64,000 nt of DNA from a virus (IMGVR_UViG_3300048833_000111:1-64000), one strand, 5' to 3'; shown: positions 2,879 through 12,884, counted from the first letter of the stretch. Notes: generated from the sequence alone by a model not told the origin. Program-made: numbers and translations.

Positions 2879-3943
2879 TTATACAATAATACCAGACCAA
2901 TCAATTTGTAGTTCAGATTTATTTTCTCTAACTACTTGGTCTACTTCAAAACCATTGGTACTATAATATTTGTATAATTCTAGTAATTGAACAAAACCCT
3001 TAATATCTTCAAGCTTTTGATAATATACAGTCTTTTTATTATCAGGATATAATGTATCTAATACATCTCCTTTTAAGTATATACATTCTCTACCATTCTT
3101 ACCTATATCAAGTAAAGTTTCATCACAAGTAAACACAAGAGGTTGCCCTGGGTCTGTTGTAGATTCAACTATAAATTTAAATGGTAAAATAGTATAATCT
3201 GGATATAAATACTTTAATGCTTCTGTATAAAAAGCAGCTTGAATATCATATCTCCTTCTTCTAAGAGATTTTGGAAATGTAATTGTATAATCTCCCATAG
3301 TTTTAATATCTATGGGTTGTATAGTTTTAGCCTTTCTATCAAATATAATCATATCTAATAAGGCTTTACAGTCTACACCCATACATTCAAAGTAAATTGG
3401 AACTTGATAATGTATTTCTGGAGCATTAAAATATACAGAAGTAGCCTCATTGGTTCTAAGTGACATAACTATAGTATCAATTAGTGTAGACTCTTCTTGG
3501 GATAATACAACTTTTCCTTGGGAAGCTTTTAAATCCTCCCAATATTCATAATTTTCACATATCTTATTTATCCTAGTGGCTTCATTCCATCTAGATTGAT
3601 AAGCATGACTATCACAAGCATTTATAATAAGTTCTTTGTAATCTTCATCAGTTATTCTACCTAATTCTGGACCATAGTGTTGTACAGCATTGTCAAATAC
3701 CATATTAATAATACTTTTTATAGTATCACTAGGTTTAGTATTTAAATCTGATACGTGATAGGTTTGATTATATATTTCCACATTTTGTGTTAACATACAA
3801 TCTACTGCTGAACCTATTATAAAATGAGTTTTTTCCTCAAAATATAGTTCAGCTTCTCTTTCATTTGTAAAAGCTTTGGGGCTAATTAATAAAGATTTTA
3901 ATTGTGATTGAGAAATACTACTATGTTCATAATAACTTTCCAT
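2879..3943 (-). CDS. PD-(D/E)XK exonuclease (RecE/exonuclease VIII-like)
   Basis: ISQSQLK, GSAVD, KALLD...IDIKT, YDIQAAFY motifs. Confidence 0.8.
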   Translation of the reverse strand: MESYYEHSSISQSQLKSLLISPKAFTNEREAELYFEEKTHFIIGSAVDCMLTQNVEIYNQTYHVSDLNTKPSDTIKSIINMVFDNAVQHYGPELGRITDEDYKELIINACDSHAYQSRWNEATRINKICENYEYWEDLKASQGKVVLSQEESTLIDTIVMSLRTNEATSVYFNAPEIHYQVPIYFECMGVDCKALLDMIIFDRKAKTIQPIDIKTMGDYTITFPKSLRRRRYDIQAAFYTEALKYLYPDYTILPFKFIVESTTDPGQPLVFTCDETLLDIGKNGRECIYLKGDVLDTLYPDNKKTVYYQKLEDIKGFVQLLELYKYYSTNGFEVDQVVRENKSELQIDWSGIIV

Positions 3944-4353
3944 TATTTCTTCATATTAAATTGTAAAATCTTTTTAAAATCTTCAAAAGTCATAAAGACT
4001 ATATCATCATATGGAATTCTATTTCTTCTACCTTTTTCCTTATTCTTTCTATGTATAAGTATTTTAGGTAAAGTATGTTCTATAGAAGATGGTGGAAATA
4101 ACTCCACCATCTTTTCCTCTATATAACTTAATTCCTTACTAGGATTTAATCCTTTATCATATCCAGCTTTAATCTGGACATTAAAAGGTAAAAATATTAA
4201 GTCTATACCTGCATCATCATGCAATTTTGAACCCATCCTAGCTGTTTTACAATGACTAAATCCTAATTCATCCCTAAAAATTTTAGCATACAGTCTTTCT
4301 GCATCTGAGCCTTTTCTTTTATTTGTTTTTCCATAACTTTTTTTATCTGCCAT
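3943..4353 (-). CDS. Holliday junction resolvase-like PD-(D/E)XK nuclease
   Basis: KRKGSDAER...GIDL...VQIK pattern. Confidence 0.65.
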   Translation of the reverse strand: MADKKSYGKTNKRKGSDAERLYAKIFRDELGFSHCKTARMGSKLHDDAGIDLIFLPFNVQIKAGYDKGLNPSKELSYIEEKMVELFPPSSIEHTLPKILIHRKNKEKGRRNRIPYDDIVFMTFEDFKKILQFNMKK

Positions 4354-4355
4354 AT

Positions 4356-5006
4356 TTATTGTATTTGTAACATTTTAGGCACATCTTCTTGTAAATGTTT
4401 CATCAATTGAGTAACATTCTTGAACTTAGGTTCCTCATAATTATTTTGAAATAACCATTCATTTATTCTTGAAGTTTGAACTACATCCATACCCAAATTT
4501 TTCAATGGGTCTATATACATTTCACCTACTTTTTTTCTTATATTTTTTAGCTCAGTTGTAGTATCAAAAGCATTATTAATAAATAAGGTAAATTTAGTTA
4601 TATCAGGATTACTTTCAATCTCACTTATAGGAGTATTTATAATATATTCTGAATTTATACCCAGACATACATATACAATATCACCTTTATAAATTATACC
4701 TCTATGTAAATTTACATACATATCCCTACCTCTTAATTTATAATTATATCTTATTGGTTGTCCAGTTGTAGATATAGTATTAAGTAGATGTGCATATTGT
4801 CTCACATAAGTATTGGGATTAGCATCCCCAGGTAATGAATATTCAATTAATCTTACACCACTTTCTTCAAATTCCACTAATTCATGTGCAAATAAAGAAT
4901 AAAATGGTACAAACATGTTACAATCAGAAGTTCCCATCAATCTAGTTCTATAATGCATTGGATTATATTGATTACTATTAAATTGAAAAGAAATTAAATT
5001 TCTCAT
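4356..5006 (-). CDS. Hypothetical protein coupled to the E1/ThiF gene
   Basis: 4-nt overlap with upstream ThiF ORF. Confidence 0.7.
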   Translation of the reverse strand: MRNLISFQFNSNQYNPMHYRTRLMGTSDCNMFVPFYSLFAHELVEFEESGVRLIEYSLPGDANPNTYVRQYAHLLNTISTTGQPIRYNYKLRGRDMYVNLHRGIIYKGDIVYVCLGINSEYIINTPISEIESNPDITKFTLFINNAFDTTTELKNIRKKVGEMYIDPLKNLGMDVVQTSRINEWLFQNNYEEPKFKNVTQLMKHLQEDVPKMLQIQ

Positions 5007-5752
5007 TGTTCTTGTTTTATTGGGTTAACTTCTTCATTTAAGTAATTAATAGGTATAAAATATTCCCATTTAAAAGGAACTATTCTATCATCTTCTCCAA
5101 TTACATTATTTGCATAATGGTTAGTAAAAAATCCCACCATATGTGATGCAATCATTGCTGCTGAGTGAGAGGTTTGCTTTAGAGTACAAGGTGCTTCCAT
5201 AACTTCAGAATCATCAAAAAGATATTGTTCATAATCTTCCATAGTTTCTGGAGTCACACAAAAGATAGTAAGTTGTTCCATAAGTAATCTACCATCTACA
5301 AATATAGGTATATTCTTATCTTTATCTTCTGCACCAGCTACAAGATTTACATCTTGCCAATCTTTTACATATTCTTTCCAATTTGCAAACATATCTTTCC
5401 TTGCTTGCATATTATCAAATGCTGAGAATACATAATGGTGACTCATAGAATCCTTAGTGTATCTCATATTGTTTGCCATTATATCTACATCTGCAAAATG
5501 TTTACATAAACCTTTTAATGCTTCTACTTTAGGTGCATTTTTCTCTGCATCCTCTTTTGTAAACAATTGACCTCCAATATTATGTTCTTCAATATTGTCA
5601 AAGTCAAACACTATAGGCTGAAAACCTGCTCTAGCTAACATTAGGGATAACCAAGAGCCTATTCCCCCAGCTCCCCCTACTATCACATGTATTGTCTGTT
5701 CTTTAGGATACCAAGGAGCATCTTTAAATCTACTTGCTTGTACTTGATTCAT
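5003..5752 (-). CDS. E1-like (ThiF/MoeB family) adenylating enzyme
   Basis: GGAGGIGS loop, DFDNIEEHNIGGQ, KVEAL, DN..AR, DGR; candidate catalytic Cys in APCT. Confidence 0.9.
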   Translation of the reverse strand: MNQVQASRFKDAPWYPKEQTIHVIVGGAGGIGSWLSLMLARAGFQPIVFDFDNIEEHNIGGQLFTKEDAEKNAPKVEALKGLCKHFADVDIMANNMRYTKDSMSHHYVFSAFDNMQARKDMFANWKEYVKDWQDVNLVAGAEDKDKNIPIFVDGRLLMEQLTIFCVTPETMEDYEQYLFDDSEVMEAPCTLKQTSHSAAMIASHMVGFFTNHYANNVIGEDDRIVPFKWEYFIPINYLNEEVNPIKQEQ

Positions 5753-6962
5753 ATTTCTTATATTTTTCTAACACACTCTTTAATCCTTCTATTACTGGCT
5801 TTAACATCTCTCTTATATAGTTTATATTGCTAGTATATAGTTCTTCTTCCAAAACTTCAATAACACCTTCTGTCATTTGTTCAAACATTTCTGGTGCATC
5901 TTTATCTTGTACGTGTATAAAGAATTTATTATAGATTTTTAAATAATTTTTAATAATATTGGAAGCTAGTGCAAATGGAGATACACTAAATGATTTATAG
6001 TGGTCAAGTATATCCTCTATATCAGAGAATTCACTATGGTCAGCACCATTATTTATCACAAACATTGCAAAATCTTCCATTATTTGCTGTTCCAATTCTT
6101 CTTCTGCTTCTTCAACTTCTTCTATCTGTTCAGCAAAATGTTTTAGAGATTGGGTCCTAACTTCTTCGGGGAAAAAATCTGCATCTTCCCAGGCATCATC
6201 TCCCCAATTTGAACCTGGATTTAACTTTCCCATAAAACTCCCTTTAGAGTTTGTAGGGTGTATTCTAGTTCTACTATGACCTATATTAAAACTTTTAGTA
6301 GTTGTAGTTTCAACAGATTCTCTTTTTTCAGCAGCTTCTATAATACCTTCTACCTTCTTTTTAAAATCATCCTCAACTTCTATAGTATTCTTTGGAGAAT
6401 TTATATCACAATTTAAGGTAATTAGTTTCTTTTCTACAACTTCTTCTACAGAATAGTTATACTTTTCTCCATTTTCATCTTTTGCAACAAATTGAGCTTT
6501 ATCACTCTCTACTATAAAAGCTACTTTTGCAGTAAACTCCATAAAGTTATTTACAATAAGTGATAAGTAGAAATTATGGTTTGGTGCATTATCTTCCAAT
6601 TCAGACCAATCTGTACCTGAGAAAAATACATTCATAGTATTATGACTATGTATATGCCCCATTTTCCAATCATCTGATTCTGGATTATCCATCATATAAT
6701 TTATTACTCTTTCATCAAAAGTATATTCTGTATAAGAAGAAGTGCCTTTATGCATAGGAAGTATATCCTGTAAAGTAAGTACCATATTTTCTGGGTCTTT
6801 AATAGAACCTTCCAATGAATAAAATAATACCCCTGACCACTCTACTTTAGGTATTTCCTTACACAGCCACTTTATCTGGTCTAGCACTTTCTTTGGCATT
6901 ACCAGTTTTATTTGAGTATCTTCTAACTGTACTCTCTCTAATTTTTTTGATATTGATGTCAT
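5730..6962 (-). CDS. JAB/MPN+ metallopeptidase with acidic C-terminal extension
   Basis: EWSG and HIHSHNTMNVFFSGTD = E...HxHx7SxxD JAMM motif. Confidence 0.85.
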   Translation of the reverse strand: MTSISKKLERVQLEDTQIKLVMPKKVLDQIKWLCKEIPKVEWSGVLFYSLEGSIKDPENMVLTLQDILPMHKGTSSYTEYTFDERVINYMMDNPESDDWKMGHIHSHNTMNVFFSGTDWSELEDNAPNHNFYLSLIVNNFMEFTAKVAFIVESDKAQFVAKDENGEKYNYSVEEVVEKKLITLNCDINSPKNTIEVEDDFKKKVEGIIEAAEKRESVETTTTKSFNIGHSRTRIHPTNSKGSFMGKLNPGSNWGDDAWEDADFFPEEVRTQSLKHFAEQIEEVEEAEEELEQQIMEDFAMFVINNGADHSEFSDIEDILDHYKSFSVSPFALASNIIKNYLKIYNKFFIHVQDKDAPEMFEQMTEGVIEVLEEELYTSNINYIREMLKPVIEGLKSVLEKYKKYESSTSK

Positions 6963-8028
6963 ATTCTAATTCTTGTTTTATAAAATTTCTTACTTCTGGG
7001 TGTAGAAAATACTTTATATTTGTAGTATCTCCTAAACTAGGGGGTTCCCCTATTTTAAATGTTAATTCTTTTCCTTGGAATATATATTTGAACTCAGGTC
7101 CAGTTGTACTCCTTACAGAAGGATACCCTGGTGGGCTACCAAACTGATAATAATTATTTTGACTATCCTTCATACATATAACCCTTTTCTTTAATGATTC
7201 ATCAAGTGGGACAGTTTCAGTAAGAAACTTTTCAAATCTATCATTGTCCACTATTATATATTGACCATTTTCAAGTTTAAAATCAACTTGTGGGGTTATT
7301 TTATTATTTCTATGATAATCTATAACTAAATCTTTTAAAGCCTTAAAATCATTTATATTAGGATTACTTCTCCTACCACTTTGAGTGTGTATTTGAATTT
7401 GCTCCATTCTTCTATGTGGTCCTCCCTCTAAAGATTCCCAACTTACTAATCCTGTTATCTGTATTAGAAAAGGTATTAATCTTTCTTCTGATATACCTTC
7501 AGAATTTATATCTGCAATAAAGTCATTTATATGTCCTGACCCTCTACAGAAAGAACTATAAAAAGGAGCTGTACTATTATGAAGATTAGTTGCACTTCCT
7601 GGTAAATGGCTATGGAAATAATTAGATGAATATTCAGCATAACTTACTGACATCCTTCCTCCAGATAGATGTGCTATATAAATTTCATCACCTCTTCTAG
7701 TTAAACTTATCTTTACAAATAAATCTGTAACTGTATGTTCTTTTTTATATGAATTTTTAAGTGTTATTTCAGGGAAATAAATAACTACACCAAGTATATC
7801 TACGATATCCTCATCAGGTCCTGTTAACGTTATATCCAAATCCCATAGTCCTTCATAAACTTCTTGAGTGCATTTAATAAATAACCTAAACTTTTCAAAT
7901 AAAGGTTTTGTCATATATTCTCCACTCAACAATAGTTTTTGATTCTTCTGTTGTTCTAAAATCCATTTAAAATCCCTACACTTATCAGCCTTTTTTATAT
8001 CTTGTATTTTTTTATTTAATGTTGACAT
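6859..8028 (-). CDS. Putative prokaryotic E2-like (UBC-fold) conjugating enzyme
   Basis: YFHSHL...SFCRGSG resembles the E2 HxH...C-G arrangement; lies between Ubl and JAB/E1 genes. Confidence 0.55.
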   Translation of the reverse strand: MSTLNKKIQDIKKADKCRDFKWILEQQKNQKLLLSGEYMTKPLFEKFRLFIKCTQEVYEGLWDLDITLTGPDEDIVDILGVVIYFPEITLKNSYKKEHTVTDLFVKISLTRRGDEIYIAHLSGGRMSVSYAEYSSNYFHSHLPGSATNLHNSTAPFYSSFCRGSGHINDFIADINSEGISEERLIPFLIQITGLVSWESLEGGPHRRMEQIQIHTQSGRRSNPNINDFKALKDLVIDYHRNNKITPQVDFKLENGQYIIVDNDRFEKFLTETVPLDESLKKRVICMKDSQNNYYQFGSPPGYPSVRSTTGPEFKYIFQGKELTFKIGEPPSLGDTTNIKYFLHPEVRNFIKQELEYDINIKKIRESTVRRYSNKTGNAKESARPDKVAV

Positions 8029-8050
8029 TATTATGTAGTAATATTATTAT

Positions 8051-8077
8051 AAAAGGGGAGCTGTATTGCCCCCCCTT
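8051..8077 (-). terminator. Intrinsic terminator-like hairpin after the Ubl gene
   Basis: G/C-run hairpin followed by T-run on minus strand. Confidence 0.55.
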
Positions 8078-8090
8078 AAATATTTGATTA

Positions 8091-8522
8091 TTAACCTAAC
8101 CAGTCATTGCTATTATTTCTTTCAGAGCTTTGTCCACTTGCCAATCTTCTCAAATCATCCATATCTGGGTCATTTGTACAAGAGTTTTTTATTAGAGCAT
8201 CTTCAGAACCTGTAAGTTCATCACCCAATGCTTCAAATAAATCTGCTAGTTCATTAAGTGAATTAGAGATTTGTGCAAGAACTCCTTCTACACTACCAGA
8301 TTTAGTTTTAGCTGGCATTAAGTACAATTTGAAATCTCCTTCAGGAAGCTGAGCCTCATCTAGATTCAATTCATTTCTTGTTTCACCAACCATCATCTTC
8401 ATTCCTTGATAGTTGATTTCTCTCTGTCTTAAAAGAGGTTTTAATTCTGCAACAGTTGTTACATTTGTCTCAATAGTACCAGAGGCACCTACTGTAGATA
8501 AAACTTTAATTTTTCTTGTCAT
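8091..8522 (-). CDS. Putative ubiquitin-like (beta-grasp) protein with C-terminal extension
   Basis: ~76-aa N-terminal domain RKIKV...TTVAELK...LPEGDFKLYLMPAKTKSG with Ub-like pattern ending in Gly; E1/E2/JAB context. Confidence 0.6.
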   Translation of the reverse strand: MTRKIKVLSTVGASGTIETNVTTVAELKPLLRQREINYQGMKMMVGETRNELNLDEAQLPEGDFKLYLMPAKTKSGSVEGVLAQISNSLNELADLFEALGDELTGSEDALIKNSCTNDPDMDDLRRLASGQSSERNNSNDWLG

Positions 8523-8543
8523 AATATTATGTTTTTAAATTAA

Positions 8544-8843
8544 TTAAATAGATACGTCAGAAAATCTAGATTTCTTAATATCTTGTGTGAATTCAAGAGC
8601 TTCCTCTAATCTAGCTAATTCAGAAGTTAATTTGAATTCAGATTTAACATCATAAGGAATCTGTCTTTGTGCTGCCACAATAGCTGATTTCTTTTGAGCA
8701 ATTTGAGAGTTTAGATTCATAATCTCTCTTTGTACTTCAATTGAAGCTTCTTGAGCTTTAATTTGTAAAGCTTCTGTTTTTTGTGTTTTCTCATCTTGAG
8801 AAATTAACTGCAAGTAAGTTACTTGTGCATTGTCTTTTGCCAT
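8544..8843 (-). CDS. Hypothetical coiled-coil protein
   Basis: Q/E/K-rich helical ORF. Confidence 0.7.
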   Translation of the reverse strand: MAKDNAQVTYLQLISQDEKTQKTEALQIKAQEASIEVQREIMNLNSQIAQKKSAIVAAQRQIPYDVKSEFKLTSELARLEEALEFTQDIKKSRFSDVSI

Positions 8844-8872: not shown

Positions 8873-9943
8873 TTATATAATTTGTTTTTCTTTTAAGAAT
8901 TTTAATAAGGATTCTTTACCTTTTTTTTCAAAATAATCAGAAGGGTCTTTAATATTTTCATTTAATAATATAGGTGGTAAAAATAGACTACTGGTTTTTT
9001 TTAACTTAGTGATATTATTAATATAATCACTTACTATTTTAGAATTTGTTATTCCAGTACTATCATTATCAAACCATATTATTATAGTTTTAAATCTTTT
9101 ACTTAAGTGTAGTAATATCTTTTTATTGGGTATCATTCCTTCATTTTGGAACCAGATACAGTTAAAACCTAAATTTCTTAGTACTCTACAGTCTTTATAA
9201 GATTTTGTAATTATTAAAAGTTTTCCTTTAAGTGGTAAATTTTGTATAGAACCTACTTCATTTTGGCTACAATTTGTAAACCATTTTGCATCTTTAGATG
9301 CATGTGGTCTGTATATTTTAACCTTACCTTCTATTGGATTACCTTCAATATCTATAAAACCTGTATATGCATAACATATATCTAATGGTCTTACAGTGAA
9401 AGGTTCTCCCTTTCTAGAAATAGATTTATATATTTCTACAGGAATTACCTTATCTTCTATTAAATTTTCTTTTGTTATTTCGTATTTATTCCAAAATTGT
9501 TTATCTTTGTAGTTAAATTGTCTTGGTAAATAGGTGATAACTCTTTCCTTAAAGACTTTCTTAACATTCTTTTCTTCTACATAGCCATATTCGTGGATTA
9601 TTTCTTTAGCTTTTCCTAAGTTATCACCTAAACCAAGATTTAACTCTTTGTTGATTATTTCTAAAGCTTCTTTAAATGTTACATTGTAACAAGCTTTTAT
9701 GAAATCTATACAATTCATACTCTTTATAGGGTATGGAGATGCAAAATCAACAAATAATAACTTTCCATTAAACTCTTCAAAGTAACAATCTGGATTATTA
9801 TCATCACGATAAGGGGCTATATACATAGCCCCTTTATCCTGAATAATATCATCTTGTATGACTATTTTAAATATTTCTTCTTCTGTAGCTCTCTTGAATA
9901 TTTCCTCAGGCTTTAAAGGTACATACTTATTGTAGCCATACAT
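8873..9943 (-). CDS. DNA primase (TOPRIM)
   Basis: APYRDDNNP N-terminal motif, ITKSYKD, WFDNDSTG, KDPSD. Confidence 0.85.
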   Translation of the reverse strand: MYGYNKYVPLKPEEIFKRATEEEIFKIVIQDDIIQDKGAMYIAPYRDDNNPDCYFEEFNGKLLFVDFASPYPIKSMNCIDFIKACYNVTFKEALEIINKELNLGLGDNLGKAKEIIHEYGYVEEKNVKKVFKERVITYLPRQFNYKDKQFWNKYEITKENLIEDKVIPVEIYKSISRKGEPFTVRPLDICYAYTGFIDIEGNPIEGKVKIYRPHASKDAKWFTNCSQNEVGSIQNLPLKGKLLIITKSYKDCRVLRNLGFNCIWFQNEGMIPNKKILLHLSKRFKTIIIWFDNDSTGITNSKIVSDYINNITKLKKTSSLFLPPILLNENIKDPSDYFEKKGKESLLKFLKEKQII

Positions 9944-11016: not shown

Positions 11017-11727
11017 TTAATTATTATATTTATTAATTTGTTCTAATACAAATCCCATATCATTGGGAATTAATTTTTCTTCAAACATTCCCACTGGAGA
11101 TTTTGCCATAATATGTATTCCCCTATCATCAATATGTTTATTGGTAACAAAATAATACTGTGTTCCTTGCGAATTTGTTTTAGTTGTAGTATATAATACT
11201 ACAGTAAATAAACCTGCAAGATTTACTTTATCATCTAACATTTTACCCAATGTTTTGATTTTAGATTTACCATCCTCCTCATCATCATGTGTTAGTATAA
11301 TAAAGTTAATATTATCTCTCATATTAATACCAGTATTAATAATATCATACATATTCTTAGCCATTTTATTGAATTTATCATACCCTGTTTTAAGGGCATT
11401 AGCCATAAATTCTTCTGACATAATATACTGACTATCATCTAGTACTACATTTTTAATATCTGGTCTATTTGCATTAATAAATTGTAAAGTTTTAATAATT
11501 AGCCCAGAATCTGTTGTTGAAAGATAATTTCCTTCTGTAGGTGGTTTACTAGTGTCTATAGGGACATACTTAGCTTTCCAACCTCTCATAGGTAAAGATT
11601 TGCCCTTTACATTCACTATAAATGTTTCTTTGGGGTCTAGACCTTTTATACCTAATTCTTCAATTTGTCCAATAGAGGTAGATTTTCCACTACCACTATC
11701 TCCTACAACTGCTATTGCGTTTGCCAT
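11017..11727 (-). CDS. AAA_24/Sak4-like P-loop ATPase
   Basis: GDSGSGKST Walker A, VVLDD Walker B, LTH, AKSP. Confidence 0.8.
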   Translation of the reverse strand: MANAIAVVGDSGSGKSTSIGQIEELGIKGLDPKETFIVNVKGKSLPMRGWKAKYVPIDTSKPPTEGNYLSTTDSGLIIKTLQFINANRPDIKNVVLDDSQYIMSEEFMANALKTGYDKFNKMAKNMYDIINTGINMRDNINFIILTHDDEEDGKSKIKTLGKMLDDKVNLAGLFTVVLYTTTKTNSQGTQYYFVTNKHIDDRGIHIMAKSPVGMFEEKLIPNDMGFVLEQINKYNN

Positions 11728-11732
11728 AAATT

Positions 11733-12884
11733 TTAACTGTTTAATTGATTTACATAATTGTAAACTCTTCTCATTCCTTCATTATCATCAGCCTTAGGTA
11801 ATTCTTTAAAGAAATCTACAGCTCCATCAAAGAATAGAGGTAGCTTTTTATTTGCTATACCATCCCTATCCTTGAGTATTGACATTGACCTGTACCTATC
11901 TCTAAAAAAGGTTATATCATATCCATTATGTTGTTCAATATTATATCTATCTGGTGCAAAAAGACCTAAGACTATATTGGCATCTCTTTGAGTAGTTTTA
12001 TTATCCCCTAAACCTTCTAAACTAGGTTCTAATTTTTCCTCAATAGTGTTTCCTTTATAATTATACTCAACCTGCTCTTTTGCTGAAGCTTGTTGTTGTA
12101 CATTTACAGGAATAAAACCAAATTTATCTCTTAATCTAAGACAGTAATCTGAGGACCACTTACTCATTGTTTGCCAAGGTGTTAACCTTAATCCATCATC
12201 TGACTCTGTATCCAATAAGGATATATGGTCTACTAGGACTATGACATAATGTTTGGGATGGTCTTTTTTATAATAGGAAATCTTCTTATAAGTATCTCCT
12301 TCTCCCATTCTAACCTGTCTTCTTTCTTCATCTGTGAAAGGTCTATTGTTCACATCATAATAGTTTCCTACCTCCATAGCATAATTTCTCATATGCTTAT
12401 ATATACCAGTAGGATTTCTAACACTGTCTATAATTTCAACTGTTTCTAGAAATTCTTCAACATAAGCTTCAGCTTCCTTTACCTTCTCTAATATTTCAGA
12501 AGATATAGTATTGAATCTACCCCTAGATTGTAATTGTTTTATAGAAATGGATATATTATATTCACTGTGAAGATATTTTGATATCTCAGATAGAATAATC
12601 TTTTTTTTGCTTTCTTCTAGACTAAAATATTTCACAGTTAGTTTAACTCCACTTTCTGGATTATGCTTTATATATTGATAAGGATTATGAATAAATAAAG
12701 ACCTGGCTAGTTTAGATTTACCTACTCCAGAACTTGCAGTCAACAAATAATATGTATCTTGCTCAATTCCTGGAATATATCTCTCTAATCTCTCCATACC
12801 AGTAAAAGGTATACAATTGTAATATCCTTCTTCATGATTGTGCTTATTAGCTACAATCTCATTATAGATTTGTTCAAACTTCAT
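11733..12884 (-). CDS. DnaB-like replicative helicase
   Basis: ASSGVGKS, FSLEE, VLVDHI, VQQQ, RDANIVL, KDRDG. Confidence 0.85.
   Translation of the reverse strand: MKFEQIYNEIVANKHNHEEGYYNCIPFTGMERLERYIPGIEQDTYYLLTASSGVGKSKLARSLFIHNPYQYIKHNPESGVKLTVKYFSLEESKKKIILSEISKYLHSEYNISISIKQLQSRGRFNTISSEILEKVKEAEAYVEEFLETVEIIDSVRNPTGIYKHMRNYAMEVGNYYDVNNRPFTDEERRQVRMGEGDTYKKISYYKKDHPKHYVIVLVDHISLLDTESDDGLRLTPWQTMSKWSSDYCLRLRDKFGFIPVNVQQQASAKEQVEYNYKGNTIEEKLEPSLEGLGDNKTTQRDANIVLGLFAPDRYNIEQHNGYDITFFRDRYRSMSILKDRDGIANKKLPLFFDGAVDFFKELPKADDNEGMRRVYNYVNQLNS

Follow-up and report, generated by a model that had tools for sequence, protein, structure and literature searches.

A candidate ubiquitin-like conjugation module in the replication block of crAss-like phages

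The four core genes of the locus

Our subject is a set of genes, in a crAss-like phage genome, that may specify a ubiquitin-type protein conjugation pathway. The DNA analysed, which we call the window, is the first 64 kb (positions 1-64000) of IMGVR_UViG_3300048833_000111. The source record is a complete virus genome, 96,217 bp in length, with direct terminal repeats and a G+C content of ~30%. From the DNA alone, a sequence-only reading had proposed that positions 4356-8843 contain an operon encoding a ubiquitin-like protein (Ubl), an E2-like protein, a JAB peptidase, and an E1 enzyme, flanked by two possible adaptors or substrates. All six open reading frames (ORFs) are present at these positions. 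Each is on the minus strand, as is every gene between position 1 and ~33 kb.

The gene at 8091-8522 (minus strand) encodes a predicted pro-Ubl of 143 amino acids. The AlphaFold2 model (mean predicted local distance difference test score, pLDDT, 75.9) has a beta-beta-alpha-beta-beta-beta arrangement over residues 3-70, followed by long helices. Foldseek comparison of the model with the PDB listed, almost exclusively, ubiquitin, SUMO, NEDD8, ISG15, and other ubiquitin-fold domains, including the Caldiarchaeum ubiquitin:Rpn11 complex. For the ubiquitin-fold matches, E-values are 2e-4 to 3e-3, the probability is 1.00, and 72-90 columns are aligned. At the sequence level, the protein matched nothing in Pfam or PADLOC, and no Pfam family was found consistently across the alignment members at E <= 10. 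A homologue search returned 788 relatives, and 29 homologues were aligned. The alignment has 30 invariant columns, all within residues 1-76 (8295-8522, minus strand), the predicted beta-grasp domain. None is in the remaining 67 residues (8094-8294, minus strand), which form a variable and mostly helical tail. The domain ends with the invariant sequence LYLMPxKTKSG76. The glycine is invariant in all 29 homologues and also in phages crAss001 and FpV4, and in other loci. The sequence-only reading had called this ORF a beta-grasp protein, and held that lack of such a fold would overturn its proposal. The model topology, the Foldseek matches, and the glycine at the domain end all agree with the call.

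Note that Gly76 is internal in the encoded protein. Hence, cleavage would be required to free it as a C-terminus. The KSG junction is retained in distant Ubls, namely FpV4 gp53 (289 amino acids), crAss001 Gp79 (225 amino acids), and an IMG/VR clade (185 amino acids). The tails of the window, crAss001, and FpV4 proteins are mutually unrelated, and tail length varies from 60 to 210 amino acids across aligned loci. A pro-Ubl that is cut at the glycine would be expected to look like this, with KSG retained and tails that have nothing in common in length or sequence.

The 62 nt gap between the Ubl and E2 genes contains a hairpin resembling an intrinsic terminator (8047-8077, minus strand). This has a 10-bp G+C-rich stem, followed by a U run, with a minimum free energy of -16.7 kcal/mol (z -3.18). 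A strong hairpin and U run is directly 3' of the Ubl stop codon in all nine loci checked, including those of crAss001 and FpV4. The hairpins share their position, with no sequence similarity. Partial termination here would leave the modifier more abundant than its enzymes. Hence, the terminator probably provides Ubl in excess.

The JAB/JAMM metallopeptidase (5730-6962, minus strand) is 410 amino acids in length. Its catalytic domain spans approximately residues 13-170 (6453-6926, minus strand), ahead of a conserved C-terminal domain that is helical. The motif E...HxHx7Sx2D is exact, and its residues E41, H105, H107, S115, and D118 do not vary among 32 homologues. The full JAMM motif reported by the sequence-only reading is therefore present, and profile matches, while weak, are consistent with it. 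The Prok-JAB profile weakly matches 30 of the 32 members (best E 0.0023), and the window protein reaches 12.5 bits, for a cut-off of 25. The PADLOC JAB model, of the CBASS type (cyclic oligonucleotide-based anti-phage signalling system), matches residues 13-131 with E 0.0048, covering 117 of 157 model positions. Against the PDB, the JAB profile gave a sub-threshold match only, to an Rpn11-like protein from Caldiarchaeum (E 0.53), and this extends across the motif. Two JAB homologues carry the JGI name 'proteasome lid subunit RPN8/RPN11'.

The gene at 5003-5752 (minus strand) encodes a minimal ThiF/E1-like adenylating enzyme of 249 amino acids. This matches the ThiF family of Pfam, PF00899, with an E-value of 1.8e-16 and 60.5 bits, for a cut-off of 28.1. 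The best PDB matches, using the single sequence, are 9EGB and 9EGC. With a profile of nine diverse members, the best match is UBA5 (7e-11, residues 15-105). Further matches are MccB, TcdA, PaaA, ThiF, the NEDD8, SUMO, and ubiquitin E1s, MoeB, BubCD of Citrobacter (E 0.0011), and Cap2. All PDB matches to the profile are E1-like enzymes, and all are confined to the Rossmann half. Similarly, the PADLOC Cap2 models, which describe E1-E2 proteins, match over their E1 part only (4.9e-07). The phage enzyme is one domain, with no CYS insertion, Zn-binding CxxC pairs, or rhodanese domain. Across the nine members R8, G27, G29, and G30 (of GGAGGIG), K75, D113, N114, R118, and C189 are invariant. Of these, R8 (an Arg near the N-terminus), K75, D113, and N114 would map onto residues that bind ATP and Mg in MoeB, the Mg-binding Asp being that of the D-N motif. 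C189 lies in the sequence APCT, as the sequence-only reading had described for this ThiF/E1 protein.

The remaining core gene (6859-8028, minus strand) encodes a predicted E2-like protein of 389 amino acids. Its UBC-like domain, approximately residues 37-213 (7390-7920, minus strand), contains Y137-x-H139-S140-H141 and F160-C161-x-G163, and is followed by a C-terminal domain of ~170 amino acids that has no fold assignment. The family is large, with 3,221 clusters at 50% identity, 2,988 of which have E <= 1e-10. Among 58 diverse members N92, H139, S140, H141, C161, G163, E198, S199, and G202 are invariant; Y137 is invariant or nearly so. The HSHL...FCRG motif, noted beforehand, is thus a conserved feature. 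The series Y-x-H-S-H ... F-C-x-G presumably parallels, in the same order, the Y-H-P-N ... I-C-L-D of canonical E2s. No match was found in PHROG functional categories or PADLOC.

The model of the E2-like protein (pLDDT 87.2; predicted template modelling score 0.75) has a helix at 41-57, four long antiparallel strands (62-125), a loop bearing HSH and Cys161, and helices at 166-177 and 181-196. This order, of helix, strands, active loop, and helices, is that of the UBC domain, and so a UBC fold fits. HSH and C161 are between strand 4 and helix 2. We compared the model with 48,161 PDB cluster representatives using VIA-align. Approximately 43 of the top 50 matches are E2, UEV, or RWD domains, with Z-scores of 4.0-5.5 and a root-mean-square deviation (rmsd) of 3.2-5.7 over 95-154 aligned residues. 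The matches include UBE2O, TSG101, the GCN2 RWD, UBE2S, UBE2F, Ubc13, UbcH5, Ubc9, and a Bub complex chain (Z 4.1). A second structural search, of the top 1,000 Foldseek chains, gave the same UBC-type picture, and included UFC1 (Z 4.2-4.4), Atg3, and the Cap2 E2 domain. The argument for the fold comes from near-exclusive enrichment for one superfamily, and not from the Z-scores, which are modest. UBC, UEV, and RWD domains top both searches (Z 5.0-5.5), with an rmsd of 3.5-4.4 over ~115-150 residues. The E2 assignment is supported only by this predicted fold and the invariant His and Cys residues. According to the sequence-only reading, lack of a UBC fold would overturn its proposal, and the structural searches did not refute it. 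A search of the ESM Atlas with the E2-like domain was unusable, since the Atlas model had a pLDDT of 0.37 and the only plausible neighbours were uncharacterised viral proteins.

The core genes had been described as consecutive and mostly overlapping. Overlaps are found between E2 and JAB (104 nt), JAB and E1 (23 nt), and E1 and the following gene (4 nt); the Ubl and E2 genes are separated by the 62 nt already mentioned. The E2/JAB overlap (6859-6962) is read in two frames, and there is protein-level conservation in both. Where JAB homologues include the first 28 residues, which are encoded by the overlap, these are conserved at the protein level. Hence, the long start of JAB is probably real. 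An E2/JAB overlap of ~30-290 nt was found in 17 of 18 loci. The locus without it, L019, is on a contig from a Flavobacteriales metagenome-assembled genome (MAG). Here, the E2-like ORF (L019:4822-6951) encodes 709 amino acids, almost double the usual length, which suggests an additional fused domain.

Gene order, flanking genes, and distribution

Loci were compared using hidden Markov models for the four core families and phmmer for the neighbours. The 18 loci comprise 13 from IMG/VR, crAss001, and FpV4, together with five on MAG contigs. The order primase-(p99)-Ubl-E2-JAB-E1-(p216)-RusA-ExoVIII was seen in 13 of 13 IMG/VR, crAss001 (Gp80 to Gp75), and FpV4 (gp55 to gp47) loci. Note that one of the 13 (L010) ends inside the JAB gene, at the contig end. 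Four of the five MAG loci keep the order; the fifth retains E2-JAB-E1, with a Ubl gene that is truncated. Hence, primase-Ubl-E2-JAB-E1 is found in 17 of 18 loci, and in the other a CRISPR array replaces the front of the Ubl gene, with no primase gene found. Strict synteny, in such distant phages, supports the idea that the genes are one functional unit.

Two small genes border the core set, and both had been suggested as adaptors or substrates. The first, encoding p216 (4356-5006, minus strand), directly follows the E1 gene. Homologues are at the same position in 11 loci, including gp49 of FpV4, which was recognised by iterated search; p216 is also present in L015, described below. Its only invariant residues are P34 and L205, neither of a catalytic type. 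Scans of Pfam and PHROG gave no informative family, and there was no PADLOC match. As a conserved fifth gene lacking invariant residues of catalytic type, p216 fits the part of adaptor or substrate. The second gene, just upstream of the Ubl gene, encodes p99 (8544-8843, minus strand), a small predicted coiled-coil protein with no match in Pfam, PHROG, or PADLOC. Homologues occupy the same position in seven close loci, and none was found in crAss001 or FpV4. p99 is kept only in close relatives, and we consider it an accessory outside the core set.

The surrounding genes, all on the minus strand, form a block for replication, recombination, and nucleotide metabolism. On one side are genes for a ribonucleotide reductase (2-955), a MazG-like pyrophosphohydrolase (1868-2191), an ExoVIII-like PD-(D/E)XK nuclease (2879-3943), and a RusA-like resolvase (3943-4353). 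On the other are genes for a DnaG-type primase (8873-9943), a Sak4-like annealing protein (11017-11727), and a DnaB-like helicase (11733-12884).

The E1 is also apparent in deposited genomes. Using tblastn, it was found in 74 phage records, including Flavobacterium FpV-type phages, crAss001, PhiCrAssBcn phages, DAC15, DAC17, and several uncultured 'cr' phages. The usual annotation is 'thiamine biosynthesis protein'. A BFVD search for a module protein matched only uncharacterised proteins of crAss-like and other phages.

Three of the MAG contigs have features of their own. L016 (639,747 bp; MAG 'Bacilli bacterium') has a CRISPR-like array at L016:1-5250, with at least 70 copies of a 37-nt repeat, spaced by ~73 nt. 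This runs into the middle of the Ubl gene. The C-terminal beta-grasp half (…PKSG) is left, and intact E2, JAB, and E1 genes follow. The junction could be an assembly join, at a match between spacer and protospacer, which would give a link to a host, or a real insertion. L017 (373,651 bp; a Puia sp. MAG) has the full primase-Ubl-E2-JAB-E1 module at 281-294 kb, far inside a very long contig of Bacteroidota, which points to a crAss-like element that was either integrated or mis-joined. L015 (41,565 bp) is in the bin of a Nitrososphaerota archaeon, and has the complete module with p216, RusA, and ExoVIII. It is most likely a mis-binned phage contig.

Relation to known conjugation systems

Bil is an anti-phage ubiquitination system consisting of BilA, BilB, BilC, and BilD (Chambers et al., PMC10557695; summary in 10.1101/2024.11.21.623953). 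Like the phage locus, it has separate Ubl, E2, JAB, and E1 proteins. In both Bil and Bub, the JAB peptidase pre-processes Ubl at a conserved glycine (PMC10557695; 10.1101/2024.11.21.623953). For Bil, this trims Ubl to a C-terminal Gly, and we predict the same for the phage. A conserved Cys is present in the E1 and E2 of both sets, implying thioester chemistry. Neither has an E3, and target choice is proposed to lie with E2. BilB is an experimentally proven bacterial E2, and differs from eukaryotic E2s by an rmsd of 3.4 Å over 93-96 residues (PMC10557695), a distance comparable to that of the phage E2-like model. There are also clear differences. The Bil E1 has an IAD-AAD-CYS architecture, whereas the phage E1 is a single adenylation domain of 249 amino acids. 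The Bil E2 has the motif C-E-H-H, with E-H-H after the Cys (PMC10557695), while the phage protein has H-S-H before C161 and no E-H-H following. The ~170 amino acid C-terminal domain of the E2-like protein is extra, and the Ubl tail, at 60-210 amino acids, is long. Finally, Bil is encoded by the host for defence, while the set described here is encoded by a phage, in its replication block.

Type I Bub systems, formerly 6E.1 or DUF6527, are BubAB-BubCD-BubE operons (Ye et al., 10.1101/2024.11.21.623953). The Ubl is a precursor cut by JAB after a conserved Gly, as would be the case for the phage Ubl. Both sets have a short E1 with one adenylation domain and no CYS domain. The E1 profile matches BubCD, and the VIA-align search with the E2-like model lists a Bub complex chain, at the values given above. 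However, Bub works via oxyesters, with no catalytic Cys in E1 or E2 (10.1101/2024.11.21.623953), whereas C189 and C161 are invariant in the phage families. Furthermore, Bub has Ubl-E2 and JAB-E1 fusions, and the phage genes are separate. The DUF6527 serine protease BubE (PF20137) was not detected in the complete phage genome at E <= 0.1, and was detected in a control genome. For type II CBASS, Cap2 is an E2-E1 fusion that acts on a CD-NTase. Judged on gene layout, this is not found at the phage locus, where E2 and E1 are separate and the JAB gene is between them. Since these defining features were looked for, and are absent, we conclude that the set is not a member of the Bil, Bub, or type II CBASS systems.

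Two further comparisons are useful. UBA5 is a minimal homodimeric E1, with the catalytic Cys inside its adenylation domain. It is the best solved-structure match for the phage E1, and the E2-like model matches UFC1, the partner of UBA5 in the UBA5-UFC1-UFM1 pathway, by fold. Maturation of UFM1 depends on Cys proteases, and not on a JAMM peptidase. No sequence relation to this pathway was detectable for the phage Ubl or E2, and the E1 match is limited to residues 15-105. Phages lambda and T1 encode a tail-assembly Ubl, TAPI, and a JAB-NlpC/P60 protein, TAPK (Iyer et al. 2006, PMC1779556). As for the Ubl described here, TAPI has a conserved Gly at the domain end, a C-terminal extension, and predicted release by JAB (PMC1779556). 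TAPI and TAPK differ by belonging to a tail module, rather than a replication module, and have no E1 or E2 and no predicted conjugation cascade.

A proposed conjugation cascade and other explanations

We consider it reasonably probable that the four proteins form a phage Ubl conjugation cascade, with JAB exposing Gly76, E1 activating it, the E2-like Cys carrying it, and attachment to a target following. From the folds, motifs, conservation, and synteny described above, we infer each chemical step and the existence of a target. Ubl would be made as a precursor, with a 76-residue beta-grasp domain and a variable tail, and be co-expressed with replication genes. The JAMM peptidase would cut after Gly76, freeing a reactive C-terminus, and may later reverse conjugates. 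The minimal E1, which is probably a homodimer like ThiF, MoeB, and UBA5, would adenylate Gly76 and then take Ubl onto Cys189 as a thioester. Ubl would next be handed to Cys161 of the UBC-fold E2-like protein. The C-terminal domain of the latter, p216, or both, might select a target lysine in a host or phage protein.

Several observations weigh against such a cascade. First, neither an E3 nor a target is evident. Second, cleavage of Ubl after Gly76 is itself something we infer from the junction. Third, the Arg of the E1 N-x-x-R-Q motif is Gly in nine of nine members (N58-x-G-G61-Q62; N-x-S-G-Q in crAss001). The missing canonical Arg is a real caveat concerning adenylation. Furthermore, alignments with solved E1s span residues 15-120 only, and end before C189. 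Fourth, the E2 call depends on a predicted fold and the invariant His and Cys residues. Cys161 is a candidate E2 active-site Cys, given the order of motifs and its position in the model. The best VIA-align match (Z 5.5, rmsd 4.0, 148 residues) is below what unrelated models often reach, and values of Z < 8 may be due to chance. Foldseek comparison of the model with the PDB gave nothing at E <= 1e-3; E2S was at rank 10 (E 0.58). Similarly, no E2 was found by Pfam searches (26 members, E <= 10) or by PDB profile searches with 26 or 58 members, which returned only chance matches.

Host defences use the same kinds of enzyme, as Bil and type II CBASS illustrate. The module could be for counter-defence, with no conjugation by the phage. 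JAB would strip host Ubl marks, such as Bil conjugates on phage proteins or Cap2-primed CD-NTase, while Ubl, E1, and the E2-like protein would be decoys for, or inhibitors of, host E1 and E2. The weak match of JAB to the CBASS model fits this explanation, and the absent E1 Arg could mean an inactive enzyme. However, residues of a catalytic type are invariant in all four proteins, in a family of more than 3,000 clusters, and the Gly76 junction and terminator point to a modifier that is consumed. Moreover, the module keeps company with replication genes, rather than with the usual variable genes for anti-defence, and even very distant phages have it as a fixed feature. On balance, we find counter-defence of this type rather unlikely.

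Operons for sulfur assimilation can likewise include JAB, Ubl, and E1 genes (see also Iyer et al. 2006, PMC1779556). If the phage Ubl were a sulfur carrier, its adenylation by E1 would lead to a thiocarboxylate, whose sulfur would be used to thiolate tRNA, DNA, or a cofactor, in the manner of ThiS/ThiF, MoaD/MoeB, and TtuB/TtuC. JAB would only mature the carrier, and the E2-like protein would have a role elsewhere. The E1 is certainly a minimal enzyme of the ThiF/MoeB type, and deposited records name it accordingly. Even so, searches for PP-loop ATPases, rhodaneses, and cysteine desulfurases found none in the whole 96,217-bp genome, while 13-14 control genomes gave matches in these searches. 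This bears out the replication-block setting, free of sulfur-transfer genes, that had been read from the window. The context, and the lack of such genes, argue against the name 'thiamine biosynthesis protein'. In addition, the E1 has no rhodanese domain, Ubl ends with KSG and a long tail rather than GG, and the set always includes a UBC-fold protein whose Cys is invariant. Since there are neither sulfurtransferase partners nor a GG terminus, we dropped membership of the ThiS/MoaD-type carriers as the main explanation, and think it distinctly improbable.

Many proteins bear Ubl domains that are not conjugated. It is very unlikely that the Ubl serves just as the N-terminal part of a longer protein associated with replication, never cleaved or conjugated, with E1 modifying a peptide or nucleotide, in the manner of MccB and PaaA, and with neighbours that are functionally unrelated. 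In favour of this are MccB and PaaA themselves, which rank with the best matches of E1, and a weakly conserved ED...DLRRLA motif in the Ubl tail. Against it, those E1 matches are limited to the Rossmann half that the enzymes share, the KSG junction does not vary although the tails beyond it are unrelated (window, crAss001, and FpV4), and the four genes co-occur in strict order.

A phage conjugation cascade is thus the explanation that we prefer. In full-text literature searches, we found no publication that connects an E1-E2-Ubl cascade with phages, crAss-like or otherwise. If correct, and as far as we could find, a full Ubl conjugation system would be known for the first time from a virus of bacteria. 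It would have unusual enzymes: a new and highly divergent lineage of E2, marked by HSH...C and comprising more than 3,000 clusters, and an E1 variant without the canonical Arg. The hypothesis is directly testable, since culturable pairs carry the module: crAss001 with Bacteroides intestinalis, DAC15 with B. thetaiotaomicron, and FpV4 with Flavobacterium psychrophilum. Work on such kits has, to date, been confined to cells and to the anti-phage defences of bacteria (Bil, Bub, and type II CBASS). Here, the picture would be reversed, and the virus would do the protein tagging. We put at slightly better than even the chance that crAss-like phages, crAss001, DAC15, and FpV4 included, run a complete ubiquitin-type cascade of their own during infection. 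The enzymes would be a minimal Cys-E1 and an E2 from a family not recognised before, and the tagging of host or phage proteins would serve to control replication or to disarm the defences of the host.

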